Shown here: piece after piece, positions 1,826 to 48,240 of the stretch | How the letters are laid out: each line of letters begins with the position of its first letter | How positions within the stretch are numbered: position 1 is the stretch's first letter | From: an uncultured Candidatus Peregrinibacteria bacterium | GTDB lineage: Bacteria; Patescibacteriota; Gracilibacteria; Peribacterales; Peribacteraceae | Direction of reading: 5' to 3' | NCBI GenBank assembly: GCA_937863435.1 | Contig: CALMES010000147.1 | Location: 1,639 to 65,638, forward strand | DNA: 64,000 nt | The notes under the pieces: generated by a model | Told to the model about the DNA's origin: nothing | The model's database searches: none | Seen by the model: only the letters and a program-made list of their open reading frames with translations | Program-made: the position numbers and the translations under genes

Positions 1826-4800
1826 ATGCGTCGGCGCACATTTTTGGGCAGCATAGGTCTCATGGGTCTTGCATTGCTGCAAAGCGCTCAGGCTGAGCAG
1901 TTTCAGCCAAAATATAACAATCCACAAACGTACGCCGAGGTGCAAAAGGGCATTGCCGAACTGAAGAAAAATATTGAGAGCGTCCAGTGCGGCGGCTGGC
2001 AGTCCGGCACAGAAGAAGAGGATGCAGCCAGTATGGGCGGCTGCAACGTACAGATACGCTGCGCCAGTGACAGTGCGGCGGCCACCGGCCCGGGAGACGG
2101 CAGCGATGAGGGCGGAGACATCGGCATCTGCTACGGCCGTGTCGCTTTCGCCAGCCGTAAAGATGCATCCGGCACCATGAATGTCTGTTCATCACGACCG
2201 AAAAACAACAAGGGCGAAACATACTTTCTTATTCATGAACTGGCCCATACGCTGCAATTCTGTCCGCATCGCGTGGGGGAGAGCGTGATTCATTCCCGCG
2301 AAACGTGCTGCAAATACGAGCGCGAAGCCTATCGCGCGCAATGCCAGGCAATGGCGGAAGACGGACAGCTTTCCGGCATTTCGATTGATCAGTGTGCCGA
2401 CTACGGCGCGTCCTATTTAAGCTGCGACAAATACGGTGTCAATGCGTGCGGCGTTCCGCCGATTGAGCCTGCAATGCAGATCACCATCCGCAAAGCGCTC
2501 TACGACGGCGGCGGCAAAACATGTGCGCAGGAAACAGCCGGACTCGACACAAAAAACCCGGACGCCAGCGGAGCCGACCCCCGTATCAAGGCGCTGCTGA
2601 AGCAAATCAACAAGCTGTCGGACGACCAGACCAAAAGCTCGAGCAGCACACCCTCCGCATTCCCGATGCCTGTTGTGACGGGCGCGCCCGGACGGGCAAA
2701 TCCCACCCCGACCGCGGACATAAAGCTGGGCGTCGGCGTACGCGCCGCATTCACCTTCCCCGACACGACCCTGGGCTTCAAGACCGCTTGTGACATCCAT
2801 CAGGCAAAAGACGCTCGCGGCAACGACATCAACCCTGAACGTCTGTGCATCAATGAAAATCCCGAACGAAACACTCCCAAAGACTGTAAAAAATTGTACG
2901 ATTTTCTGATCCGCCAGCAAAAGGACGCCAGACGCAATGACAACTGTGACGGCAGCAAGGAGAAGCTCTGCTTCGACTACACAGGCGTGTGTACCGGCCA
3001 GGGCTGCCGCACGCCGTTCTTTCCCGCATTTTCCTACACTCCACCCGTGTGTCCGCCACCGCCGCTGCCTGTGGTACCCGAGCAGGTGACGCAAAAACAA
3101 TCTTCGTTTTACCGCCACTACACAGTGACCGTTGATGCGCCGCAGAGTAATCACTGGGACGTAAGCGGGGAGTGTTACGACTGGTACATCGAGAAAGACC
3201 CTGAGCTGAACATGACCGTCAAAAAAAAGGCCGGCGGCAGTTACGCCGATACCAGGCCGTACGAACAGTGCGAGGTGAAAATCGGCAAAGACACATCGGC
3301 ATTCGAGAGCTCGTCTTCTTCTGCGGGCACGGCATCCGTGACACCGGGCGGTTCAGCCGGAAGTGCCGCTCCAAACATCACTCCCGAATGGAAACCGGCG
3401 AGTGACCAGAAGGGACAGTTCTGGCCGCAGAAAGGACTCGTCGGCCCGACCGATGATGACAGACAGCCGCGCACTGCCGCCGATCCGTGGGTAGCCGACG
3501 CGCAGACGAATCTGTCAATTCTGGACATGAAGAAAGCGAAAGATGTCACCAAAAACCTGGATGATGAAAACGACATCACGCCGTTTGCCACCAACCTGAT
3601 CGCCATCCGTCAAAAGGCCAGCAAGGCGATTGGGGCTCAGTCGCGTACCGACGATTTCGACGACACGGGCGAGCGCGGGTTTGTCAGCTGGTGGCTTACG
3701 CAGCAGCAGGAAATTATGAAGATTGTTCGCCAGCCGCAGGTACGACTGCTGCTTCCGTCGCGCTTCATTACCGGGCTCGATGAAACCGATGCGCTGTTTG
3801 CCTACGCCAAAGACAGCATTTCACAATCCAACGGCTACAGCGAAATCACCGTTCATGCCGGCTCCGAGGAGCTGGGCAATCTTCTGCAGTCGCTTCAGCA
3901 CAGTTTCTTCCTGCCGATTCAGGAGGTGCGCGTGCCTGTCATCGTGCCGCTGCTGTCGGAAACCGAAGCCAACACACGTATTGCCGAGTGGAAGTTATGG
4001 CAGCAGGAAAATCCTGCACACAAAGCCGATGCCGAGCCGTTCATTCACAAAATTGAAAGCTACCGCGACGCTGCGTTGCGGGTTCGCGACATGCGATCCG
4101 TCCTGCCGGCACGATCGAAGCAGCTGCTCACAGTCCAGAAGCAGATCCGCGGATTCTATGCCAGCTGGTATCTGCAGAACGCCAAGCGCGTCCAGCAATG
4201 GTCGCAGGTGAACGTCGTGCGCACGCAGATCAAGAAAACATGGAATACCATGGCAACAGCCCTGCTCGACGCATCGGCGTGCCAGCTGCAGTGGTGCAGC
4301 AATCAGCGCTACTCGCTGGCGGTTTACTCGCTGCTCGACGGATGGTTCCGCAAAACAGACAGAATACTGTTGAGCGCCACCGACCTCTCCAGTCTGCGGT
4401 ATCGTCCGCCCCGCGATCAGTCGATTGATTTTTCGTGGTTGCAACTGGGGTCAGGATCCAGTCTGCAGATGCCGGTGCTGTGGCCGGTACAAGTGCGTCT
4501 GACCATCCCCCTGCCTCCCCACAGCCTGAATGCGACACTGCCGGATATCGACGATTATCCCGACGTTCCGCAGTACGCCGATAACTACGCGGACTTGTTT
4601 GGCAGCATGCCGGTCCCCGACGTGCGTTTTCCTGCCGGCATCATTCCCCGCAACGAGGATTTTTCGGATTTTGCCATCAGCGATGCCTATCTGGTACCGC
4701 CCGTGGAGCGTGAAGACGTCCTCACGCAGGCACAGCAGATGCTTGATGCCCTGTCTTCTTCGTTTCAGGGCGATGACACCAGCCGCGACAATCTGAAGGG

Positions 4801-5245
4801 CGCTTACTGCCGTTTTGCCAACAGTATTCTGGAGGCACCCAATCCCGATGCGGGCAGCGACAGGCGTATCGTGCATATCGAGAATGATCTTCAGGAGCGT
4901 ATCGCCCGCCTGTTCTCACGCTTTATGCCCAACCGCGACAATGATTTCCGCGGCAAGGCAGACCGGCTCGCCGCGACGCCCGCACCGTCCCCCTGCCTCG
5001 ACGATGTGCCGTGTGCTCCTGCTCCCGGCGAAAGGCGGATCCGCGACAGCTGGCAGTGGACCGTCCGGTCGATGGCAACCGACATCCAGACTACCTACGA
5101 AGTACTGCGCGACAGCATGCTGCCGGCAATCGACCGCAATCCGTATCTGGATGCCGCCCGCAGCGTCCTTGTGCGCAGCATGCCGCTGGTGCTGCTGCCA
5201 CTCACCTACGACCTGTCACCATCCCTCCCTTCTTCCAACCCCTGA
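1826..5245 (+). CDS. large exported Cys-rich protein with HExxH (zincin-like) motif, otherwise unknown
   Basis: The N-terminus MRRRTFLGSIGLMGLALLQSAQA is a Tat-like RRxFL signal. HELAH is encoded at 2234-2248 inside a Cys-rich segment. A TATTAT hexamer at 1813-1818 lies 7 nt before the ATG. Confidence 0.75.
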   Translation: MRRRTFLGSIGLMGLALLQSAQAEQFQPKYNNPQTYAEVQKGIAELKKNIESVQCGGWQSGTEEEDAASMGGCNVQIRCASDSAAATGPGDGSDEGGDIGICYGRVAFASRKDASGTMNVCSSRPKNNKGETYFLIHELAHTLQFCPHRVGESVIHSRETCCKYEREAYRAQCQAMAEDGQLSGISIDQCADYGASYLSCDKYGVNACGVPPIEPAMQITIRKALYDGGGKTCAQETAGLDTKNPDASGADPRIKALLKQINKLSDDQTKSSSSTPSAFPMPVVTGAPGRANPTPTADIKLGVGVRAAFTFPDTTLGFKTACDIHQAKDARGNDINPERLCINENPERNTPKDCKKLYDFLIRQQKDARRNDNCDGSKEKLCFDYTGVCTGQGCRTPFFPAFSYTPPVCPPPPLPVVPEQVTQKQSSFYRHYTVTVDAPQSNHWDVSGECYDWYIEKDPELNMTVKKKAGGSYADTRPYEQCEVKIGKDTSAFESSSSSAGTASVTPGGSAGSAAPNITPEWKPASDQKGQFWPQKGLVGPTDDDRQPRTAADPWVADAQTNLSILDMKKAKDVTKNLDDENDITPFATNLIAIRQKASKAIGAQSRTDDFDDTGERGFVSWWLTQQQEIMKIVRQPQVRLLLPSRFITGLDETDALFAYAKDSISQSNGYSEITVHAGSEELGNLLQSLQHSFFLPIQEVRVPVIVPLLSETEANTRIAEWKLWQQENPAHKADAEPFIHKIESYRDAALRVRDMRSVLPARSKQLLTVQKQIRGFYASWYLQNAKRVQQWSQVNVVRTQIKKTWNTMATALLDASACQLQWCSNQRYSLAVYSLLDGWFRKTDRILLSATDLSSLRYRPPRDQSIDFSWLQLGSGSSLQMPVLWPVQVRLTIPLPPHSLNATLPDIDDYPDVPQYADNYADLFGSMPVPDVRFPAGIIPRNEDFSDFAISDAYLVPPVEREDVLTQAQQMLDALSSSFQGDDTSRDNLKGAYCRFANSILEAPNPDAGSDRRIVHIENDLQERIARLFSRFMPNRDNDFRGKADRLAATPAPSPCLDDVPCAPAPGERRIRDSWQWTVRSMATDIQTTYEVLRDSMLPAIDRNPYLDAARSVLVRSMPLVLLPLTYDLSPSLPSSNP

Positions 5246-5991
5246 TGCTGCGCCGTCTTTCAGTAACCGGCTTTCTGCTTCTTCTGCTCACTGCGCACTC
5301 GCCGTCTGCAGCGGCACAAACATCCGCGCCTTCGCCAGACGAAACGCGTACCGCCTGCCGCAATCGCATGTTCAAGGAGCTGGCGGCAGTGCACGATGAA
5401 TACCGCAGCGTCATATTCGGCAGTATCCAGGACAAAGACGGCAATGTTGTCGTCAAAGGCGGAGGGTCGGGAACCGTCGTCCGGCAGGGAATCCTGGAAG
5501 AGCGCGGCCGTCTGACCTCCGAACTGGTTGCGCCGATTATGGAAAGCTACCGCGCCTACCGCTGCCGCAGTCTTGCCGTCTGCAAGGTCCTGCAGGAATC
5601 CTTCAGTCATACCAATATGAAAGAGGCTGTACAAGTGCACACTCTCGGTTGCCAGCCGCAGGAGATCGAGCCGTACGAGGAATGTTTTTTCGGCACCGCC
5701 AAGAATGCCAAAGCGCGCCTGCCGCAAAGCGATGTACAGGCTCTGGGAACGGAATGTGACGTACTGGTGCAAGACACACTCACTATGGAGCGTGCCGTTT
5801 TGCGCACGGCCGTGGCGTACGACAGCGGCTACCGCGGTCTGCTCCAGTTTTCAGGCATGATGAACATGCTTCTCGATGCCACTGCGCGCTTCGCGTTTCC
5901 ACCGCTGCGCGACATGATCAACCTGCTGGGCAAACTGCACCAGATTCCGTGCTACATCGGTCAGTGTGATATGCGCAAAGACCTCCGATAA
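5245..5991 (+). CDS. exported hypothetical protein (248 aa)
   Basis: The signal peptide is MLRRLSVTGFLLLLLTAHSPSAAAQ. The ATG shares one base with the upstream TGA (TGATG at 5243-5247). Confidence 0.65.
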   Translation: MLRRLSVTGFLLLLLTAHSPSAAAQTSAPSPDETRTACRNRMFKELAAVHDEYRSVIFGSIQDKDGNVVVKGGGSGTVVRQGILEERGRLTSELVAPIMESYRAYRCRSLAVCKVLQESFSHTNMKEAVQVHTLGCQPQEIEPYEECFFGTAKNAKARLPQSDVQALGTECDVLVQDTLTMERAVLRTAVAYDSGYRGLLQFSGMMNMLLDATARFAFPPLRDMINLLGKLHQIPCYIGQCDMRKDLR

Positions 5992-5993
5992 TC

Positions 5994-6914
5994 ATGCCGA
6001 AAAAAACTCCCGTCACTACCGGCGCGACCGTCCGATCCGCCTCCGCAGCGAGGCAGGTAATGCAACGCATGCAGACAGTTGTGCGCAACAATCCGCTGCT
6101 GAGCGGCATTATTCTGGCAACCGTCGTGATTGCGGTGGGAACCAATGTGCTGCTGCACGCGGACCTGACAGGCGGCGGTAAGGATGGCGGCGGCACGGAA
6201 GCAGAACAAAGAAGGAATTTGAGAGCCTGCTCATCCAGCGGCACCGTCTTTGCCGGACTGACACCCAAAGAAGTGACGGAAAAATTCAGAAGCGACATGT
6301 CTCTGGTTGTCCAGGAACGCCAGGACCTGCTCATCAAGCCGTCGCTATGGACATGTGCGACGGACGACGGCGCCGGCACAGATCCTCCCATGCCGCAGCT
6401 GACGGCAATGGCCACAAACAAAATGCCGGCGTGGACCATCCGTACCGGCAAAAACACCTACGAAACGAAGCCGGTCCGCTTCGCCGATTTCTCGACTATC
6501 GTGATGGAATACGAGCGCAACTACGAATGCACCCTGTCGGAATTCCAGGGGAACGCACTCTCTGTTGTGAGCAATGATCTGGATGACTACGGTCTGCAAA
6601 ATCCGCAGGAAAAAAGCATCAGCCTGCTGCATATCGACAGCGGTCTTGGCGCGCGCATGAATCGCTTTTCGCAGACGATGCAGAACGAACGCCGGCGTGC
6701 GCGCATAGCTGTCGAGCGGACCGTCACCACTCTGCGCTCGATGGAGATTGCCGCGCCGCTTACCACCCGCATGCAATGCCTGGTCCGCCAGCAGCTCGAC
6801 CTGCGCAGTCTTATGAGCCTGCTTGCCGACACCATGAGCTGCATGCCACGCATCTGGGATGCCGCGACATCGCTCCATGACCGCTCATCCAGTGCCTCCA
6901 CCACGAATCCCTAA
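5994..6914 (+). CDS. N-terminally membrane-anchored hypothetical protein (306 aa)
   Basis: The TM helix LLSGIILATVVIAVGTNVLL follows a basic N-terminus. The gene starts 2 nt after the upstream stop. Confidence 0.65.
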   Translation: MPKKTPVTTGATVRSASAARQVMQRMQTVVRNNPLLSGIILATVVIAVGTNVLLHADLTGGGKDGGGTEAEQRRNLRACSSSGTVFAGLTPKEVTEKFRSDMSLVVQERQDLLIKPSLWTCATDDGAGTDPPMPQLTAMATNKMPAWTIRTGKNTYETKPVRFADFSTIVMEYERNYECTLSEFQGNALSVVSNDLDDYGLQNPQEKSISLLHIDSGLGARMNRFSQTMQNERRRARIAVERTVTTLRSMEIAAPLTTRMQCLVRQQLDLRSLMSLLADTMSCMPRIWDAATSLHDRSSSASTTNP

Positions 6915-8729
6915 ATGAAACACCTCTCGTCTGTTGCCATCGGCGCCATGATCTTCCTCCTGCCGGCGGCAGGAATGGCTGAATCCATCTTCGACACTTT
7001 CTACAACGAAGCGGCGCAGACGATTGACGGCACGCCGGTCAGTGACGCCATCGTACAATTTACCATTGATCAGATGCGATTGTGGGGGCCTCGCGGTATT
7101 GTACTGACCGCCGAGGATATCCGCCTCGCTCAGCTGGGAGATACTAAAGTGTGTCTCGGTAAAAAAGATCGTAATGGGGATACTATCCCGCCGATGAGCA
7201 GCGGCCTGGGTGCGTATACCTGCGACGGACTGAAGCAGGCTATAAAAGCCCTCATCGAAAGCGAGAGGCAGGCCCAACTGCTTGGCGACACACTCATCAC
7301 GATTGCAAACGGCAATGAAATGGCGATTGCCGACGAAGCGCACCGCGGATCCAATGTCGGTCAGCTGACCGCCACCTTCGGACGCCTGTGGAGCGGGACC
7401 GGCAGCCAGGCGGAAGCATGGCCGACGGACGCCGGCGATGCGGTGACCCAGCTGGAAAGCGCTCTGTCTGACGAACAGAAAGATCTGGACGCGATCATGC
7501 TCCGGTTTCACCACGGCTACTTCCGCGACGCGCGCGAGAATGACCCGCGCTTCCGCGACATAGGACCAAAAACCCGCGACGCGCTCGAAGCGATTGCCAG
7601 CCGGCTGAATATTGCGGGCGACACGCGCAAAACCGGAGACATTGCCACGCCGGTTCTCAAAACAAAAAATGTGACGCTGTGGGCACGCAAAGACGACATC
7701 GGTTTGCAGTGGACCTATCCGACGCATCTGGAACGCATGAACATTCAGGCTGCATGGGACTACCCGCAGCGCGCAGAGGGCGGACAGTCACTGGCCTATC
7801 CGTACGCGTACCGGGGCGAACCGAGGGCGGGTCAGGCATACAACATTGCAAGTCCGCTGTGCAGCCGCAGCCAGGGGCGTTTCGGCTTCCTCTGCCGACC
7901 GCTGCCCGCGGCATCCGGTTGCAACAGCACAACGGGGAGCGGAGCGCTCAGCAGCATTACCCTGACACGCTGCAGTCACACGATAACCGAGACACCCCCC
8001 GGTACCATGCAGCTGTGTTCCGGTGCCCTGCTTCTGTACAAAGACACCGGCAAGGCCGTAGGCGACCTCCAGCCTGGCGACAAGGCCGATCCGAAAGACA
8101 TCTGCTCGCCTGAAAGCAATATTCTGTACCAGGACGACACGACGCAGCATGCCTGCTATATCAGCTCCTGCCTGCGCCAGTCTATGAGCGGGCACACGAT
8201 TATCCCTCTGCGCAATACGACACTCTCCACAGAGGTGGCGGCACCGTTCCATGCGTTTGAACGGAATGATCCGCAACTGGGACTGTATGCCGAGATGAGC
8301 AGCAGCAACACTCCGGTTATCCTGCCGCCGTACCTGGGGCTGGACCTTGTGGCACTCTTCGAGCGGGATTACTGCGCGCAGAACGGGCTTCCGCCGGGCC
8401 CGCTTGCCGGCTACTGCAGCTATCAGAACAATCGGCGCGACGCATCGCCGCTTGCCCAGCTGAGCGCCATGTTCGGCTCCTACACGCAGGAGGCGGCGGA
8501 TCTCGCCAGCGACCTTGATCAGACCGCCGCACTCGGTGCGGCAACCGGCTACCGCCTCTCGCTCGACCAGTCGCTGCCCATTTACCGGACAACCGCCGCG
8601 TCACTGGCGCAAACCGTCCGCACTATCGCCAACCTGTTTAACGAACTCAAGAGCGCCCCTCTCACGCGCCAGCTCTGTCCCTGGATCGGCGCGCCGCAAG
8701 ACACCACCCTCACCCCTGTCGAACCATGA
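6915..8729 (+). CDS. exported Cys-rich hypothetical protein (604 aa)
   Basis: The signal peptide is MKHLSSVAIGAMIFLLPAAGMA. The ATG directly abuts the upstream TAA (6912-6917). Confidence 0.7.
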   Translation: MKHLSSVAIGAMIFLLPAAGMAESIFDTFYNEAAQTIDGTPVSDAIVQFTIDQMRLWGPRGIVLTAEDIRLAQLGDTKVCLGKKDRNGDTIPPMSSGLGAYTCDGLKQAIKALIESERQAQLLGDTLITIANGNEMAIADEAHRGSNVGQLTATFGRLWSGTGSQAEAWPTDAGDAVTQLESALSDEQKDLDAIMLRFHHGYFRDARENDPRFRDIGPKTRDALEAIASRLNIAGDTRKTGDIATPVLKTKNVTLWARKDDIGLQWTYPTHLERMNIQAAWDYPQRAEGGQSLAYPYAYRGEPRAGQAYNIASPLCSRSQGRFGFLCRPLPAASGCNSTTGSGALSSITLTRCSHTITETPPGTMQLCSGALLLYKDTGKAVGDLQPGDKADPKDICSPESNILYQDDTTQHACYISSCLRQSMSGHTIIPLRNTTLSTEVAAPFHAFERNDPQLGLYAEMSSSNTPVILPPYLGLDLVALFERDYCAQNGLPPGPLAGYCSYQNNRRDASPLAQLSAMFGSYTQEAADLASDLDQTAALGAATGYRLSLDQSLPIYRTTAASLAQTVRTIANLFNELKSAPLTRQLCPWIGAPQDTTLTPVEP

Positions 8730-10276
8730 AGCGCCTTCTTGTCATTGCCGGCCTCCTGCTGCTGCCAGCATCTGCTCTGGCGGCAGGACAACCCGCGCTG
8801 TCGCCATGGGTCCAAACCATTCTCGACAAAGCAGACAAGGGGATTGCCGTCGCCGCCAGACGTCCGGCCGATGAAGCCTGCCGCAGCGAACAGGATCCTC
8901 TCAAAAAAGCCCGGCTCAGGCAGACAGCGATTACGGAAGCGCAAAACGTCCTGCGCAAAGGCATTGATATCCGCACGCAGGTGAGTCTGGAGGCGCGCTC
9001 GTTGTTTGAACAGAACGTCTGTTTCCGCAGCGATGTCCGACTGGTTGAGGCCAAGATGCAGGAGGTGCGACAGGCAATGATCGACCACATCGACTCGTGC
9101 AATCTGGTCGGCGCAAACGTGCTTGGCAGCGTCTACTCCCTGCTCTCGCTGGCGCAAAAATCGCTTGTAACCGGCGGACTGGATCCGACCTATCGCGACA
9201 ATCTGGCGCGCCAAACGTACTTCTTCGAGAGCGAAGAGCTAGTCACAACACCGGGCACTCCGGTCGCACAGGACGATACATCCTCGGCTGCTCCGTCGTG
9301 CCCGTTTACCAGCGACTACGGCCCGCACTCCTACGCCACCGCACAAAGCCTGGAATCCGAAGGCACGCTGAGCTTCGGATGCGATGAAACCGTCATCCAG
9401 ACGCTGCCGGATACCCTCAAGAATGAATGGGAGAGACAGCATGCGTTTATGGCCGACATGAGCACGATTGCCGGGTCCATCAATGCCGCCATGCAGGCCT
9501 TTATCACCACCATGAACAGCACCGTTTCATACATCCGGCATGGCGCGCCGCCGGACATAAGCGACGACGCCCCCATTCGTCCGTCCGATGTCCGTCACGG
9601 CAAAGTCGACGGCTGTCTGGCGCTTGATGAGAACGAAGCGGGCAGCGAGGCGGCGCGTGACTACGCCGATGATTTCTCTGCGGCACCGCGCACGGATACC
9701 GATGCAATCTTGCCGCTGGGCCTTCTGTTCCGTCCGGCGTACGACTACTTCTCGCTCTTTCAAAATCCGCTCACGCTCCTGCAGCGCAGCGCCGACACCA
9801 AAGCCCGGCAGGGCTACGAGCAGGCGCTTGTCGGCCGCACTCTCTATGCAGGCAATGATACCGGCACGAAGCTGCTTTCGACTGTTGCCATGACAGAGCG
9901 GGACGAAAAAGACCTGCGCGGCATTTCTGCCAATCAGGCGCGGGAGCAGGCGATTGTGAATTCATGGAGCGCCGACGCCATACAGCGCAGCAGCGAGGCA
10001 TTTTCTGAGCTGGACGGCAGCGTGAAGGCCCTTGGCAATGTGGTAAAGGAGAAGGGAACGCTGCCGCTCTACATTCGTGACGTGGCGTATTTCCTCCTGC
10101 GCTCGTGCGTCGACGGCCACTGCACCAAGAATCTGGATACGATTTTGAAGCGCGTGCTCAATCCGTACTGCTACCCGTATTCATCGGATCTCTACAAAGA
10201 AGACAACGTGCCCGAGAAGTGCTTCTGTCAGGATCAGGAATGGGGAGGATACGCCGAGTATTGTATGGCGACGTAA
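8726..10276 (+). CDS. exported Cys-rich hypothetical protein (516 aa)
   Basis: The signal peptide is MKRLLVIAGLLLLPASALAA. There is a 4-nt ATGA overlap with the upstream gene. Confidence 0.7.
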   Translation: MKRLLVIAGLLLLPASALAAGQPALSPWVQTILDKADKGIAVAARRPADEACRSEQDPLKKARLRQTAITEAQNVLRKGIDIRTQVSLEARSLFEQNVCFRSDVRLVEAKMQEVRQAMIDHIDSCNLVGANVLGSVYSLLSLAQKSLVTGGLDPTYRDNLARQTYFFESEELVTTPGTPVAQDDTSSAAPSCPFTSDYGPHSYATAQSLESEGTLSFGCDETVIQTLPDTLKNEWERQHAFMADMSTIAGSINAAMQAFITTMNSTVSYIRHGAPPDISDDAPIRPSDVRHGKVDGCLALDENEAGSEAARDYADDFSAAPRTDTDAILPLGLLFRPAYDYFSLFQNPLTLLQRSADTKARQGYEQALVGRTLYAGNDTGTKLLSTVAMTERDEKDLRGISANQAREQAIVNSWSADAIQRSSEAFSELDGSVKALGNVVKEKGTLPLYIRDVAYFLLRSCVDGHCTKNLDTILKRVLNPYCYPYSSDLYKEDNVPEKCFCQDQEWGGYAEYCMAT

Positions 10277-10320
10277 AGGGGCTGGGGTTAATGGTTGGCA
10301 TTGATTGAGCATCTGGAAAC

Positions 10321-10376
10321 TCCCAACTACCAATACTCCAATTCCCAAATTGGTAGTTGGTTATTGGTAGTTGGGA
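10321..10376. repeat. 15-bp perfect inverted repeat of CCAACTA-type words (hairpin after operon)
   Basis: TCCCAACTACCAATA at 10321-10335 pairs with TATTGGTAGTTGGGA at 10362-10376. An inner CCAATT/AATTGG hairpin is also present. Confidence 0.8.
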
Positions 10377-10401
10377 TTTGTTCAATTGAATGATCAAAAC
10401 A

Positions 10402-10410
10402 TGCTAAGAT
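10402..10410 (+). promoter_or_regulatory. extended -10 box TGCTAAGAT
   Basis: It matches the window-wide TGCTAnAnT motif. It lies 6 nt upstream of an in-frame ATC at 10417. Confidence 0.45.
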
Positions 10411-10443
10411 CACCCTATCTCCTCAACTATTTTCATCGCCGGC

Positions 10444-10989
10444 TTGTCGTGGAGCACGACCGAAGAAACGCTCAAGAAGTATTTTACGCCGATTGCGTCT
10501 GTCGTGTCGGTCCGGCTCACGAAAGATCCGAAGACCGGCAAATCCAAAGGATACGCTTTCATCGAATTCCAAACGCCGGAGATTGCCAAAAAAGTGATGC
10601 GCCAGTGCGATGGCAAAAATTGCGATGGCCGGACAATGCGCATCGATATCGCAAAAGAAGAACCGGCGGAGCCGTGCAAGCTGTATGTATCAGGCTTGCC
10701 GCAGGGCATTTCGGAAGAAGCGCTGATCCGTCATTTATCGCAGGCCGGACAACTGGTGAGCGCCAAGATCGCGCACGAGGCCGGCAGCACCCGCAACCGC
10801 GGCTTTGCGTTTGTGGAAACAGAGACCGACGCAGATGTAGAGGCGATTATTGAGGCGCTGGATGGATCGATTTTGAATGATTCGAGACTGAGTATTAAAC
10901 GTGCGCGACCGAAGACGGATAAGGCGCCGATTGAGGGGAAAAGAAGAGGCGAGCAAGACACTAAAAACGCTAATGCAATTGAAAACTAA
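10444..10989 (+). CDS. RNA-binding protein with two RRM domains
   Basis: RNP-1 motifs KGYAFIEF and RGFAFVET are present. The track start is a TTG inside the first RNP-2 motif. The in-frame upstream sequence encodes IFIAG, so the true start is probably ATC at 10417. Confidence 0.8.
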   Translation: MSWSTTEETLKKYFTPIASVVSVRLTKDPKTGKSKGYAFIEFQTPEIAKKVMRQCDGKNCDGRTMRIDIAKEEPAEPCKLYVSGLPQGISEEALIRHLSQAGQLVSAKIAHEAGSTRNRGFAFVETETDADVEAIIEALDGSILNDSRLSIKRARPKTDKAPIEGKRRGEQDTKNANAIEN

Positions 10990-11603
10990 ATTTGTATTAA
11001 CCAAGCTGGTTGAAAAATAAAAAGAATCGTAAGGCTAATGACACCAATGATAAATAAGTAAAATGCGACGTTTCGACACACCACAATCCAAACCAATTGC
11101 CAAAAATTGAGAAAAAGTTTTTGTTTATTAGTGGTTGCAATCAGTATCTCTGCACACTCATTAATTCTACCTTTTAACAAAAAAAGAAAAGCTTTTTCCG
11201 AGTTTCTACGAATAAAATCAGCACCTTCTACTTCGTACGACCATTCTAGAAGTGATGCAATAACACCTATCACAAGTGATGCCAATAAGATCAGTGTTAT
11301 AATTTTAAATATCCGAGAGTCGGCTAGCGGAGATCCAATTGAATCCAGCAAAGGCAATGCGACCGTAAGGAATGTCCCAGCTGTAGCAAAAATAGTCAGG
11401 TAAAGGTTTCTTCTTTGTGAAAGCGCAGCATTGCGCGTTGTAATAGCTTCTTGTCCGAGCGATTGAATATGATTCAATGCTTTTACATTATCAGATTGCA
11501 GCCACTTGATAATATCTGCCATATCATTATTTAGCCCTTCTTCTGCGTCCGCTTGTTGCTTATATAGATTTCCAAAGAGAAACAAAATGATTTTCAGCCA
11601 CAT
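10986..11603 (-). CDS. hypothetical multi-pass membrane protein (205 aa)
   Basis: An AT-rich ORF with several hydrophobic helices and no recognised family. Its stop overlaps the RRM gene stop by 4 nt. Confidence 0.5.
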   Translation of the reverse strand: MWLKIILFLFGNLYKQQADAEEGLNNDMADIIKWLQSDNVKALNHIQSLGQEAITTRNAALSQRRNLYLTIFATAGTFLTVALPLLDSIGSPLADSRIFKIITLILLASLVIGVIASLLEWSYEVEGADFIRRNSEKAFLFLLKGRINECAEILIATTNKQKLFLNFWQLVWIVVCRNVAFYLFIIGVISLTILFIFQPAWLIQI

Positions 11604-11697
11604 GATATAATCCTAATTCATCTATTAAAACTCAACAATGACAACTAGATGAGGCTGAACATTGAGATGAAAGATATCATAGATAAATCGGCAACCA

Positions 11698-11822
11698 CCG
11701 CGGCTAAAAAAGCCGCTCCCTATGATCAAAAAATAAACCCAGGGGAGCAGGATGCTTCCTGCGGCGATTGATGTATTTTATAGTACCCATCGGGGCACGA
11801 TGCCCCTCCTGCGGATATATTT
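11698..11822. repeat. cluster of three REP-like hairpin elements
   Basis: Three hairpins are present. GCGGCT-AAAAA-AGCCGC lies at 11700-11716 in inverted orientation. GGAGCAGGATGCTTCCTGCGG lies at 11744-11764. CATCGGGGCACGATGCCCCTCCTGCGGATATATTT lies at 11788-11822 and is identical to 43391-43425. Confidence 0.8.
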
Positions 11823-11883
11823 TTTTCTTGGTAATTGGTCGTTGGTTTTTGGGATTTTTTTTCTGCGCTTAAGGCCCTCTAAC

Positions 11884-11892
11884 TGCTACAAT
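11884..11892 (+). promoter_or_regulatory. extended -10 box TGCTACAAT for dnaE
   Basis: It lies 7 nt upstream of the dnaE ATG (11900). No SD is present. Confidence 0.5.
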
Positions 11893-11899
11893 CCCATCA

Positions 11900-14800
11900 A
11901 TGAATCCCCAAGACTTCGTCCACCTACATACGCACTCCACTTTCTCTCTTCTGGAGGCTTTGCCTACGCCCGACGAGATTGTGCTGCGTGCCAAGGAATT
12001 GGGGCACGACGCGGTGGCGTTGTCGGACAAGGGCTACACCTACGGACTCATCCAGTTCTACAAAGCCTGCAAGAGCCATAAGATCAAACCGATTCTGGGG
12101 CTGGAAACGTACATTGCCGCACGCACGCGCCACGACAAAGACAGCTCATCCGACACACGGCGCTACCCACTGGTGCTGCTGGCCGAAACAGACGAAGGCT
12201 ACGAAAATCTGCTCAAACTTGCGACCAAGGCGGCGCTCGAAGGCATGTACTACAAGCCGAGAGTGGACAAAGAACTACTGCAGATGCACGGCAAAGGACT
12301 GATTGCGCTCAGCGGTCCAATTTCTGGTGCCATTCCACAGGCGGCGCTGGCCGAAGACCGCGAAAGAGTAAAGGCGCTCGTGGATGAGTACCGTTCGTAC
12401 TTTGGTCACGACAATTTGTATTTCGAACTGATGGATTTCCCAAACGTGCCGGGACAAGCGGAAGTGAATCAGCAACTGATTGCACTTGGCAAAGAATTCG
12501 GCGTGCCGCTGGTTGCCACCAACAATAGCCATTATTGCCGCCTGGAAGACGCCGAAGCCCACGACGTGCTGCTGTGCATTCAGAAGAACGCCAATGTGAA
12601 CGACGCCAGCCGCTTCTCCATGCGCGACAGCGATTTCTCCATGCCCACAAGCGAAGAGATGATGGCCAAATTCGCCCACGTGCCCGAAGCGATTGCCAAC
12701 ACGCGCGTGATTGCCGACCGCTGCACCATCAACATTAAGTTCGGCTCGTATAAAATTCCGAAATTCCCGATTACAACCGGAGAGACAGAGGAGGAGCTGC
12801 TGCGCACCAAATGCGAAGAAGGCTTGCGCGTACGCTATCCGCATGCACAGTCGAGGACAGCTCCGCACAATGGAGAGCAGTTTAGCCCTAAGCAGATCTG
12901 GGACCGATTGGATTACGAGCTGGAGACCATCAACACTATGGGATTTTCGGGGTACTTTCTGATTGTCGCCGACTTCATCGGCGAAGCCAAACGACGCGGC
13001 ATTACCGTGGGTCCCGGCCGTGGATCGGCGGCCGGTTCGATTGTGAGTTACGTGCTGGACATCACCACCCTCGATCCGCTGGAACATGGGCTGCTGTTCG
13101 AGCGCTTTCTGAATCCCGAACGCATCTCCATGCCGGATATCGACGTTGACTTTGCCGATACGCGCAGAGACGAAGTGCTGGAATATGTGCGGGCGAAATA
13201 CGGCACCGATCGTGTGGTCCAGATCTGTACGTTCGGAACACTGGCTGCCCGCGCAGCTGTCAAAGATGTCGGCCGCGCATTTGGTGTGTCATTCAACGAA
13301 ATGAATGCGTTGGCCAAGCTGATTCCCGAGCGTCCGGGCACAACACTCGACGAAGCGCTGGCAACCGACGAGCTGCAGGCCGCCATCAAGCACGATGAAA
13401 ACTACAAGAAAATTATTGATATCGCACTCAAGCTGGAAGGCAAATCGCGCCACGTGTCGGTGCATGCCTGCCGCGTTGTCATCACACCCGAACCGGCGAC
13501 CACCTACACCGCCATTCAGCGTGCGCCGAAAGACGAGAATACGATTATTACGCAGTACGACGCCAAGCCGCTGGAATCTTTGGGGCTGCTCAAAATGGAC
13601 TTCCTGGGCCTTAAGAACCTGACGATCATCCAGACGGCACTCGAAATTATCGAGCGCATGCACGGTATCAAAATTCATATTCCGGCGACGGGGATGAACG
13701 ACAAGAAAACCTTTGAGCTGCTGGCGCGCGGCGAAACAACCGGCGTGTTCCAGCTGGAATCCGCCGGCATGCGCCGCTACTTAAAGCAGCTCAAGCCGTC
13801 GGCCTTCGATGACATTACGGCCATGGTGTCTTTGTACCGCCCGGGTCCGATGGACAAGATTCCGGATTACATCAAATGCAAAAACGGCGAGAAGGAAGTG
13901 AAGTATCTGCATCCGGATTTGGAACCGATTCTCAAGCCCACGTACGGCGTTGGTATTTACCAGGAACAGATTCTGGAAATGGCGCGCACATTCGCCGGAT
14001 TCTCTCTGGCCGAAGCCGACTTGCTGCGCAGAGCCATCGGTAAGAAAATCAAGAAAGAGCTGGACGCACAGCGCGAAATATTTATCCGGAAAGCCAAAGA
14101 AAAAGGCTACACCGAGAAACTGGCTGTGACATTATTCGACGATGTGATTACGCCGTTTGCCGGTTACGGTTTCAACAAATCGCACGGTGCCTGTTACGCG
14201 CGCGTTGCCTACGAAACGGCATTTTTGAAAGCGCATTACCCAACAGAATTCATGGCTGCCCTGCTGAGTAGCGAGCAGGGTGATACCGATCGTATTTCCA
14301 TCGAAATCGAGGAAACACGCGCAATGGGACTGGAAGTTCTGCCGCCGGATATCAATGAATCGCTGTCGGACTTTACGGCGCTCGAAGGCCGCAAAATCCG
14401 CTTTGGACTGACAGCCATCAAAGGAGTCGGCGAAAGCTCCGTTGCCCAGATTATCGCTATTCGCGATGAGGTGGGCGGCAAGGGGAAGTTTGCCAGCCTG
14501 GAAGATTTTGCGCTGCGTGTGCCGAGTAAAATTCTCAACAAGAAACTTTTGGAATCGCTCGCCAAATCCGGTGCGCTGGATTCGCTCGGTGAACGCGCCA
14601 TACTTGTCGGGCAGTATCAGCGGATTGCCGAATTCAGTAAATCCGCCGGCGACAGTGCGGCGTCTCAAGTGGATCTTTTTGAATCGCTCCATACCGCATC
14701 CGATGCGTCGAAAATCTCCTTCGATCCGGTAACACCCGCAACCGCTCAGCAGAAATTGCTGTGGGAAAAAGAGACGCTCGGCCTCTACGTTTCCAGCCAT

Positions 14801-43390: not shown

Positions 43391-43425
43391 CATCGGGGCA
43401 CGATGCCCCTCCTGCGGATATATTT
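43391..43425 (+). repeat. REP-like hairpin element, 35-nt perfect copy of 11788-11822
   Basis: The element reads CATCGGGGCACGATGCCCCTCCTGCGGATATATTT. Confidence 0.85.
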
Positions 43426-46731: not shown

Positions 46732-46956
46732 AATCGGAATATTTCGATTTATATTGCCATTGCCGTGAGACGCCCCGGACTGAATCTTTGCAACTCAACG
46801 ATTTGGCTGGATGCTGATTATTGAACTAGTCGGGGCGTCTGTATTTAAAAAATTTATAAATTCTTTCAATTATTTCCGAGATTAGGAAATCTTCCCTATA
46901 ATAGCCATATATCAGCAATCCTCATCCGCGGCGGCCATGTTGTATCGTCCAAAGGG

Positions 46957-48240
46957 ATGCGGCTGGCGGATGTGTTGTATGAGAATGGGGAAGTAAAAAA
47001 AGTAGGTGATAATCTTCAGTCGGAGCCGCATGCCGATCTCATAGAGGCCGAAGGCATGTTGCTCTTTCCGGGGCTCATCGATTGCCATGTGCATTTTCGC
47101 GAGCCGGGCTTGGAGCACAAAGCGACACTGGAAAGTGAAGCGCGTTGTGCAAGGCTTGGCGGTATTACGACCGTGTGCGAAATGCCGAATACCGTTCCGC
47201 CGACAGTCACGATTGTCGCGCTTGCAGACAAAGTGCGTCGGGCCGAAAAAGTGCGGGGATTCGATTTTCATTTTTTCTTCGGTGTTACCGAAGCTGCGCA
47301 TCTGCACGCTCTGCGCGAACTTTGGACAGGTGAATCGGCAGAGCTCCGACGCCTGAAAAAATATTGCTGCGGTGTGAAATTATTTTTGGATCACTCAACG
47401 GGCAATCAAATGGTCGCGCGCGAACTGATCGATGATATTTTTGCTGCGTGTGCCAAGTTACACATTCCGCTTGTCGCTCACTGCGAAGATCCGGAGATCA
47501 ATGCTGCTGCGGCACAAGCAAACAAATCTACGGATATTAGTGCTCATTCACTCATGCGTCCGCCAGAATCAGAAGCGTCATCGATTAGCTTTGCACTCGA
47601 AAAAGTACGCACGCATGGAACCGCGTTACACATCGCGCATCTTTCTACTAAGCAGGGAATTGAACTTGTCCGTCAGGCAAAAAAGGATGGCCTGCCCGTG
47701 ACCTGCGAAGTGTGCCCGCACCATTTACTGCTCTTGACCGATGATTATTCGTGGCTTGGCACGCGCGGGAAAATGAATCCACCATTGCGATCTGCTGATC
47801 ATCTCAAAATGTTATGGAAAGGAATTGCTGATCATACTGTTGATTGTGTTTCGACGGATCATGCACCGCACACCATCGACGAAAAAAACGCGCTCGAAGC
47901 TCTCAAGGCGCCAAGCGGCGTGCCCGGAGTGGAGACGATGGTGCCGCTGCTTTTGAGTGTCGTGGCTGGGAAGTGGCCGACGAATAATCAGAAACGAATT
48001 ACGAATTACGAATTACGAATTACGCCGGAAGATATTCTTCGGCTCTGTTTTACGAATCCGAATCAGATTTTCTCTTTGGGACGCGAAGAGATTTCTGAAG
48101 GAGCGAAGACGCCGATTGTGATTATCGATCCAGCGGTTGAATGGACAATCAGCGCCGAAAACCAGCACAGCAAATGCGGCTGGACGCCGTACGAGGGCTG
48201 GAACGTCACCGGAAAAGTTATGCAGATTGTAGGATCTTAA
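46957..48240 (+). CDS. pyrC: dihydroorotase
   Basis: The motif DCHVHFREPG is present. The conserved N-terminal strand ILIRGGHVV is encoded in frame upstream of the first ATG, so the start is probably ATA at 46909. A repeat-derived insertion lies at 47974-48021. Confidence 0.9.
   Translation: MRLADVLYENGEVKKVGDNLQSEPHADLIEAEGMLLFPGLIDCHVHFREPGLEHKATLESEARCARLGGITTVCEMPNTVPPTVTIVALADKVRRAEKVRGFDFHFFFGVTEAAHLHALRELWTGESAELRRLKKYCCGVKLFLDHSTGNQMVARELIDDIFAACAKLHIPLVAHCEDPEINAAAAQANKSTDISAHSLMRPPESEASSISFALEKVRTHGTALHIAHLSTKQGIELVRQAKKDGLPVTCEVCPHHLLLLTDDYSWLGTRGKMNPPLRSADHLKMLWKGIADHTVDCVSTDHAPHTIDEKNALEALKAPSGVPGVETMVPLLLSVVAGKWPTNNQKRITNYELRITPEDILRLCFTNPNQIFSLGREEISEGAKTPIVIIDPAVEWTISAENQHSKCGWTPYEGWNVTGKVMQIVGS

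Follow-up and report, generated by a model that had tools for sequence, protein, structure and literature searches.

A two-RRM protein gene of a Peribacteraceae bacterium probably initiated at AUC on a leaderless mRNA, with AUA counterparts in the same genus

The present work concerns one gene in a stretch of 64,000 nucleotides (hereafter the window: positions 1,639 to 65,638 of contig CALMES010000147.1, assembly GCA_937863435.1) from an uncultured groundwater member of the Peribacteraceae (Peregrinibacteria), within the candidate phyla radiation (CPR), whose relatives have genomes of 0.7-1.9 Mb. The gene codes for a protein with two RNA recognition motifs (RRMs) and carries ATC at the codon where its orthologues have their ATG start. 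On the evidence given below, this ATC is probably the start codon, placed at the very 5' end of a leaderless mRNA. The locus contains the following features:

10321..10377, plus strand: terminator-like hairpin with a long perfect stem (CCCAACTACCAATA...TATTGGTAGTTGGG), folding at -34.1 kcal/mol
10402..10410, plus strand: extended -10 element TGCTAAGAT (TGn + TAAGAT), fitting the consensus ttTcTGCTATacT and containing the in-frame TAA 10405-10407
10411..10416, plus strand: spacer CACCCT, 6 nt from the -10 box to the start codon, delimited in the alignment with loci L002, L025 and L026
10417..10419, plus strand: ATC, predicted 5'-terminal start codon, aligned to the ATG start of all orthologues
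10417..10989, plus strand: coding sequence of the two-RRM protein, 190 codons plus TAA (Pfam RRM_1 twice, E = 1.2e-36)
~10429-10641, plus strand: RRM1 (Pfam RRM_1)
10429..10446, plus strand: RNP-2 hexamer I-F-I-A-G-L, beta-1 strand of RRM1, at the onset (position 1) of the Pfam RRM_1 profile
10444..10446, plus strand: TTG (Leu10), start used by gene callers and rival initiation site (public calls give a 181-aa protein)
~10678-10905, plus strand: RRM2 (Pfam RRM_1)

Read in frame, the region runs TGA (10387), ATG (10390), ATC, AAA, ACA, TGC, TAA (10405-10407), GAT, CAC, CCT, ATC (10417), TCC, TCA, ACT, ATT, TTC, ATC, GCC, GGC, TTG (10444), and the translation after the TAA is D-H-P-I-S-S-T-I-F-I-A-G-L-S-W. 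An initial annotation, made from the letters of the window, had claimed that no ATG, GTG or TTG lies between this TAA and the TTG at 10444, that the TTG falls inside RNP-2, and that a start there would truncate the first RRM. Direct reading of the sequence confirmed the first claim; the TTG is the last codon of IFIAGL, and the Pfam RRM_1 match covers residues 5-75 counted from the ATC (profile positions 1-70), so that its beginning would be lost from a protein started at the TTG. Thus, the codon aligned to the orthologue ATG is ATC, a stop lies four codons upstream of it, and the first canonical start is the TTG at codon 10. The in-frame ATG at 10390 stands five codons ahead of the TAA, before the -10 box, and has no conserved counterpart in the relatives.

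The assignment to RRM_1 relies on a significant profile match, on the presence of both RNP-1 and RNP-2 motifs and on two domains. Like the bacterial RRM proteins of the Rbp/RbpA type, the protein has the canonical RRM_1 fold, with RNP-2 (IFIAGL, LYVSGL) and RNP-1 (KGYAFIEF, RGFAFVET); unlike them, it consists of two tandem RRMs in 190 residues, whereas typical bacterial Rbp proteins have a single RRM. The gene has a patchy distribution, being present in 5 of the 25 genomes of the family, and its best matches outside CPR and close relatives are eukaryotic nucleolin RRMs (31-34% identity). These two aspects hint at an unusual origin, or at convergence, of the two-RRM protein.

The hairpin at 10321-10377 lies between an upstream gene of 516 aa and the RRM promoter, with 25 nt from its end to the -10 box. 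Its stem is nearly perfect and exceptionally stable (z = -6.98; none of 200 shuffles was equally stable), and this putative terminator sets the RRM gene apart as a transcription unit of its own. Downstream of it, the arrangement described in the initial annotation was found exactly: TGCTAAGAT at 10402-10410, six nucleotides (CACCCT), and ATC at 10417-10419. The further claim that other genes of the window carry ATG in the same geometry also held, since TGNTANNNT-N6-ATG occurs nine times against 1.37 expected, a count that none of 100 shuffles reached. Genome-wide, ATG codons opening an open reading frame (ORF) of at least 100 aa peak at a spacing of 6 nt after an extended -10, with 60 cases; spacings of 7, 8, 9 and 10 nt gave 34, 26, 21 and 24 cases, over a background of about 5-8. 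The consensus of the 60 sites is ttTcTGCTATacT-N6-ATG, and the commonest second residue is Ser. The RRM promoter, TGCTAAGAT-N6-ATC, thus has the geometry of these 60 ATG genes, with the -10 at the distance of about 6-7 nt from the start codon that characterizes leaderless genes; the codon itself is neither ATG nor GTG. Moreover, A10417 is the sole purine in 10413-10424 and is therefore the transcription start expected from the sequence. The first 30 nt of the mRNA predicted from this position have no structure (0 kcal/mol), and an unstructured 5' end is needed for efficient leaderless initiation (PMC8459731).

We compared the RRM gene with seven orthologues, four of them from whole genomes of the family, including that of a congeneric sister species with 89% identity (genome G001, locus L002, as opposed to G000, the genome holding the window), and three from other assemblies (P0001, P0002 and P0008). 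If the TTG were the true start, the orthologues might be expected to begin there; instead, seven out of seven have ATG at the codon aligned to ATC 10417. The N-terminus is MSSTLFIAGLSW in the sister species and in P0001, P0002 and P0008, and MSSSLFVGGLSW, MSCSLFVGSLSW and MSKSLFIGSVSW in the family-level genomes; the proteins begin with MSSTLF, MSSSLF or the like, and their RNP-2 versions are LFIAGL, LFVGGL or LFIGSV. In three close relatives, the extended -10 is kept as TGCTACGAT or TGCTACCAT while the flanking upstream DNA has diverged, the distance from the -10 to the ATG is 14-15 nt, and the codon for Leu10 is TTA. Three changes mark the window lineage: a deletion of 8 nt that brought the spacing to 6 nt, i.e., the modal leaderless spacing, ATG to ATC, and TTA to TTG at Leu10. 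The gene is under strong purifying selection (dN/dS ~0.045 at dS ~1.2 against the relatives). Of the codon changes on the window branch, 17 are synonymous and 6, mostly conservative, are not, and codons 2-9, which precede the TTG, account for two synonymous changes and one conservative L-to-I replacement. Against the sister species, the same codons differ by four synonymous and one conservative change, undatable relative to ATG to ATC.

A sequencing error hiding an ATG would undo the whole case; thus, we checked the allele in other assemblies. The 181-aa protein called from TTG 10444 is present on 11 contigs, and six loci were fetched: ERZ27248701 (megahit), four ERZ7245xx (SPAdes) and SRR14234036 (Logan). 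Over 2.8-6.5 kb, these independent assemblies match the window at 99.5-100% identity. They stem from different samples and were built with different assemblers, and all six agree in every base of the 130 nt upstream, ATC included. The 181-aa look-up could retrieve TTG-called copies only; hence, we also queried the gene index for the M-initial 190-aa version, which would be the product of any ATG, GTG or TTG allele, and obtained no match. The ATC is a real allele, present in samples from at least three separate sources, and it appears to be fixed in the species. A degenerate pattern scan for intermediate genotypes (the deletion with ATG, or ATC with the long spacer) retrieved none from metagenome contigs, and the same scan of genome contigs retrieved the sister genome only, with no intermediate genotype.

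In order to place the RRM gene in a wider frame, the whole genome of the sister species was set against that of the window, giving 913 orthologous ORF pairs. The start codon first common to both genomes in or near the start of the alignment was ATG/ATG in 489 pairs, TTG/TTG in 64 and GTG/GTG in 39. The first broad orthologue screens were dominated by shadow frames and by conserved promoter or leader DNA; sharper criteria were used instead, together with a search, made without regard to promoters, for coding-type divergence ahead of the first canonical start, and the two converge on the same set of genes with AUH (AUA, AUC or AUU) at the predicted start. Such starts are rare, concerning about 4 genes among about 900 orthologue pairs:

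RRM gene, G000: TGCTAAGAT-N6-ATC; no canonical start upstream; TTG at codon 10
pyrC, G000 and G001: TATAAT-N6-ATA; in G000 no canonical start upstream and ATG 16 codons in; in G001 an in-frame ATG 9 codons upstream
def, G000 and G001: TACAAT or TACACT-N6-ATA; in G000 no canonical start upstream and the first ATG 35 codons in; in G001 an ATG 35 codons upstream
VOC-family gene, G001: TGCTACCTT-N6-ATA; no canonical start upstream; G000 has ATG at the aligned codon

The pyrC promoter lies within the window:

46897..46911, plus strand: TATAAT (46897-46902), AGCCAT, ATA (46909-46911); first ATG at 46957, 16 codons downstream

Its ATA is in frame with I-S-A-I-L-I-R-G-G-H-V-V, the sister species has an identical TATAAT-agccat-ATA, and the family-level orthologues have ATG (eight) or GTG (one) at the aligned codon. 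Both the 48 nt after the ATA and some 30 nt ahead of it have diverged far less between the species than synonymous sites in the rest of the gene (dS 0.18 vs. 1.24). The def gene (locus L116; G000 contig C148, minus strand) has its ATA at 1022, 6 nt after TACAAT. It is the only copy of def in G000, where fmt is also present; the Pfam Pep_deformylase match begins at residue 6, and the public call is a 120-aa protein (P0009, on 7 contigs). Codons 2-35 of def differ between the species by 14 synonymous changes and 1 non-synonymous change. The predicted full N-termini are (M)TILPIVIGQDQPILR for Def and (M)SAILIR for PyrC. The VOC/glyoxalase-like gene (145 aa) is on the minus strand of contig C2 in G001, with a copy on contig C150 in G000; the latter has TACAAT-N7-ATG, against TGCTACCTT-N6-ATA in the sister species, where a start at the first canonical codon, 27 codons in, would cut off the IDHVGI metal-binding strand. 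As for pyrC and def, only the G000 copies are clean, given the in-frame ATG codons 9 and 35 codons upstream in G001.

The 83 codons between the AUH codon and the first canonical start of RRM, pyrC, def and the VOC gene were then pooled and compared between the two genomes. They contain 4, 2 and 28 differences at positions 1, 2 and 3, respectively, with dN 0.041, dS 0.633 and dN/dS 0.065. Since the divergence is dominated by synonymous changes, these segments are, judging by their evolution, translated, and since no canonical start lies ahead of them in G000, translation must begin at a non-canonical codon. The obvious candidate for the initiation site of the pyrC, def and VOC class is the AUH codon placed 6 nt after the -10 and aligned to the orthologue ATG. 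On this evidence, AUA functions at the leaderless position of genes in this genus, which makes AUC at the RRM gene credible.

Other matches were discarded. The ATA of the def gene of G005 is preceded by a GTG and does not count as an AUH start, and the ATC of the G004 def gene (TACACT-N6-ATC) is ambiguous, with an in-frame TTG 6 codons upstream. The matches on contigs C79, C80, C106 and C76 share an ATG a few codons downstream, those on C59 and C129 show 3 differences only, and that on C9 is probably a shadow frame.

On the whole, we consider it probable that the RRM mRNA is leaderless from A10417 and is initiated, likely weakly, at its 5'-terminal AUC, as the initial annotation had proposed; the orthologue ATG, the modal geometry and the three ATA parallels support this by inference. 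According to this model, the extended -10 TGCTAAGAT would drive transcription from A10417 with no leader, and translation would proceed from the terminal AUC, presumably with fMet-tRNA and a third-position mismatch, to give a product of 190 residues, (M)SSTIFIAGLSW..., with the first RRM intact and the predicted N-terminal peptide (M)SSTIFIAGLSWSTTEETLK. The ancestral state, kept in the relatives, would be an AUG behind a leader of about 8 nt; the 8-nt deletion would then have made the mRNA leaderless and AUG would have become AUC in this lineage. As AUC is expected to be a weak start, the change has probably lowered or adjusted expression without putting an end to it. In def and pyrC of both species, and in the VOC-family gene of the sister species, AUA would play the same role. 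Where transcription starts, which tRNA initiates and how efficiently are points that we infer from the sequence. With three more genes carrying ATA in this arrangement, AUA and AUC probably both serve to start translation on the leaderless mRNAs of these bacteria.

Several points weigh against this interpretation. In Caulobacter, leaderless reporters with a 5'-terminal AUC, AUU or AUA drop drastically compared with AUG, and AUG is required on leaderless mRNAs of E. coli (PMC8459731). ATC is known from a single near-clonal population of the species only (contigs 99.5-100% identical); its origin could thus be recent, and any later selection is not measurable. The TTA to TTG change at Leu10 on the same branch created a canonical alternative start nine codons downstream. 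The firm parallels are all ATA and none is ATC, the other ATC candidates (the G004 def gene and a gene on contig C19, see below) being ambiguous. Furthermore, the ATH class is not statistically enriched at the leaderless position genome-wide: with an extended -10 at spacing 6 there are 4 ATC and 13 ATT, and with a relaxed -10 at the same spacing 9 ATA, 6 ATC and 9 ATT, like at other spacings; the case thus rests on the gene-by-gene comparison. Finally, IF3, which discriminates against near-cognate codons, is present in the genome.

The same data may be read as a recent loss of the start codon, in which ATG became ATC and left the gene silent or residually expressed, on its way to a pseudogene whose ORF is still intact because the mutation is young. 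The restriction of ATC to one species-level population, the ATG retained by all other relatives and the very low efficiency of near-cognate codons on leaderless mRNAs in the bacteria tested (PMC8459731) fit such a loss, as does the dispensability in the family of a gene that most of its genomes lack. On the other side, ATC is the sole allele on record across its separate sources, the ORF bears no other lesion, and the 8-nt deletion puts the codon exactly at the modal leaderless position; AUA at the same position supports def and pyrC in the genus, with N-terminal segments evolving as coding, and weak initiation need not mean a dead gene. We regard the loss as unlikely. A start at TTG 10444 on a 27-nt leader, with TTA to TTG compensating the loss of ATG, would yield 181 residues and an RRM1 without beta-1. 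This codon is canonical, the first one in frame, and a novelty of the window branch, TTA being present in the three close relatives; however, about 10% of the codons carry a synonymous change on that branch, so TTA to TTG may be due to chance, and a start there deletes RRM_1 profile positions 1-5, i.e., the RNP-2 strand at the center of the RRM sheet. Moreover, the ATG starts of the genome cluster 6-10 nt after the -10 box, against 33 nt for the TTG, and the 27 nt contain no Shine-Dalgarno-like sequence, although the lineage appears to be Shine-Dalgarno-independent anyway (PMC10783764). Altogether, the TTG start seems to us quite improbable.

Initiation might also occur at another in-frame near-cognate codon, ATT 10429 or ATC 10435 (giving MFIAGL... 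or M-AGL...), both of them AUH codons in unstructured RNA. They are internal, though, lying 12 and 18 nt into the predicted mRNA, and no ribosome-binding signal accompanies them; the orthologue N-termini align to 10417 instead and the parallel AUH cases are all exactly 6 nt after the -10 box, which makes these codons very improbable starts. As to an artefact or recoding, ATC differs from ATG by a single G-to-C at 10419, and the ATG at 10390 is in frame and could serve if the TAA at 10405 were read through. The six assemblies agreeing on every base speak against an error, and the position of ATG 10390 upstream of a conserved -10 box, together with its absence from the relatives, speaks against read-through; an altered genetic code found no support, the genes of the relatives ending in ordinary TAA/TAG with no hint of stop reassignment. 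The chance of either is practically negligible.

Two other genes of the same genome have unusual beginnings. In infC (locus L028, 1189-1290, G000 contig C120), no in-frame ATG, GTG or TTG precedes the conserved NEQIRVPEV, and the 33 codons upstream of it show coding-like divergence; a 1-nt indel brings an upstream ATG in frame, in the sister species only. From the conserved segment LRQHHKGSFNAPSGLKPRY, one may suspect a non-canonical start, perhaps CTG. The IF3 sequence, by reading alone, has no obvious extension. On the minus strand of contig C19, the gene for an 800-aa ATP-grasp protein (GILGMNARN...) reads, in both species, CCC ATC GCC CTC AAR CTC TTC ACY CAC GGC ATC CTC GGY ATG; the 13 codons before the first ATG have three synonymous differences only, and conservation drops sharply upstream of the ATC. 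Here, a leadered ATC start is possible, there being no -10 box at 6 nt.

The initiator tRNA (G000 contig C106, 40080-40156) is identical in G001 and has the C1-A72 mismatch and a CAT anticodon. With A29:U41, G30:C40 and G31:C39, its anticodon stem retains only two of the three conserved G:C pairs, which help to select the initiator tRNA in the P-site (PMC3017606). No initiator tRNA with a GAU anticodon was found, the initiator having CAU, and ARAGORN reported no tRNA-Ile(GAT) in the metagenome-assembled genome (MAG). The same program listed a 97-nt 'tRNA-???' with a four-base anticodon read (gaat) on G000 contig C107, c[20465,20561], a tRNA-Ile(TAT) and four tRNAs with a CAT anticodon.

Concerning the translation apparatus of the group, Ca. 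Peribacter riflensis is listed as lacking the CCUCC anti-Shine-Dalgarno and as Shine-Dalgarno-scarce (PMC10783764), and bS21 is often missing in Peregrinibacteria (PMC9297842); both aspects fit Shine-Dalgarno-independent initiation. The assembly of the MAG contains no 16S gene. Around the RRM locus, a scan of window positions 2001-12000 gave a GC content of 58-61% at 2-10 kb, a region of large genes with no Pfam matches on record, going down to 45% at 10-12 kb, around the RRM gene and an adjoining membrane-protein gene. A 35-nt element lies downstream of the locus at 11788-11822, with an identical copy at 43391-43425 of the window.

The arrangement predicted for the RRM gene can be compared with three known systems. 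As in bacterial leaderless mRNAs (lambda cI, Caulobacter, Mycobacterium, Deinococcus), some 6-7 nt separate the -10 from the first codon, a 5' untranslated region and a Shine-Dalgarno sequence are both lacking, the 5' end carries no structure, and the architecture is widespread in the genome; unlike in those mRNAs, which have a 5'-terminal AUG (GUG in mycobacteria), the codon is AUC, or AUA in the parallel genes. In mycobacteria, the first codon of leaderless mRNAs is RUG (PMC9094748). Mammalian mitochondria offer the nearest natural parallel, since their leaderless mRNAs start with AUA, AUU or AUC, decoded as initiating methionine; leaderless AUA initiation depends there on m5C/f5C34 in mt-tRNA-Met and on the IF-3mt extensions (PMC11775629). 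In contrast, the code is standard in the bacteria considered here and AUH starts are rare exceptions. The third system is the AUU start of E. coli infC (and pcnB), which likewise combines a conserved gene with a third-position near-cognate codon that lowers initiation and renders it sensitive to IF3, and infC is itself without a canonical start in the present genome. Those AUU starts serve IF3-dependent autoregulation, on leadered mRNAs where a Shine-Dalgarno sequence aids the near-cognate codon; the predicted leaderless AUH genes, instead, have no leader.

Leaderless initiation is thought to be the ancestral way of starting translation, and, to our knowledge, in the bacteria tested it depends almost absolutely on a 5'-terminal AUG (or GUG). 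The RRM gene, together with def, pyrC and the VOC gene, points to AUH starts being used on leaderless mRNAs in a CPR genus. If natural, conserved AUA/AUC leaderless starts are confirmed, the AUG/GUG rule would be lineage-dependent, and these genes would represent a bacterial counterpart to mitochondria. A practical consequence concerns gene callers, which mis-annotate such genes: the public calls leave the RRM protein 9 residues short and Def 35 short (120 vs. 155 aa), and PyrC called from its first ATG would lose 16; CPR proteins thus look truncated or defective, which is probably not the case. The start-codon change of the RRM gene and the 8-nt promoter-proximal deletion would, in turn, make up a compact example of expression re-tuned by two small mutations. 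More tentatively, and with some doubt on our part, the genus might have relaxed third-position discrimination at the 5'-terminal codon within a Shine-Dalgarno-independent and mostly leaderless system of initiation, with AUA and AUC as evolutionarily stable leaderless starts under the standard code, comparable to those of mammalian mitochondria but found in a free-standing lineage of bacteria. This may be linked to the initiator tRNA with two G:C pairs and to the reduced ribosome, and the weak starts would then set a low or IF3-sensitive expression of def, pyrC, the VOC enzyme, the two-RRM protein and perhaps infC.

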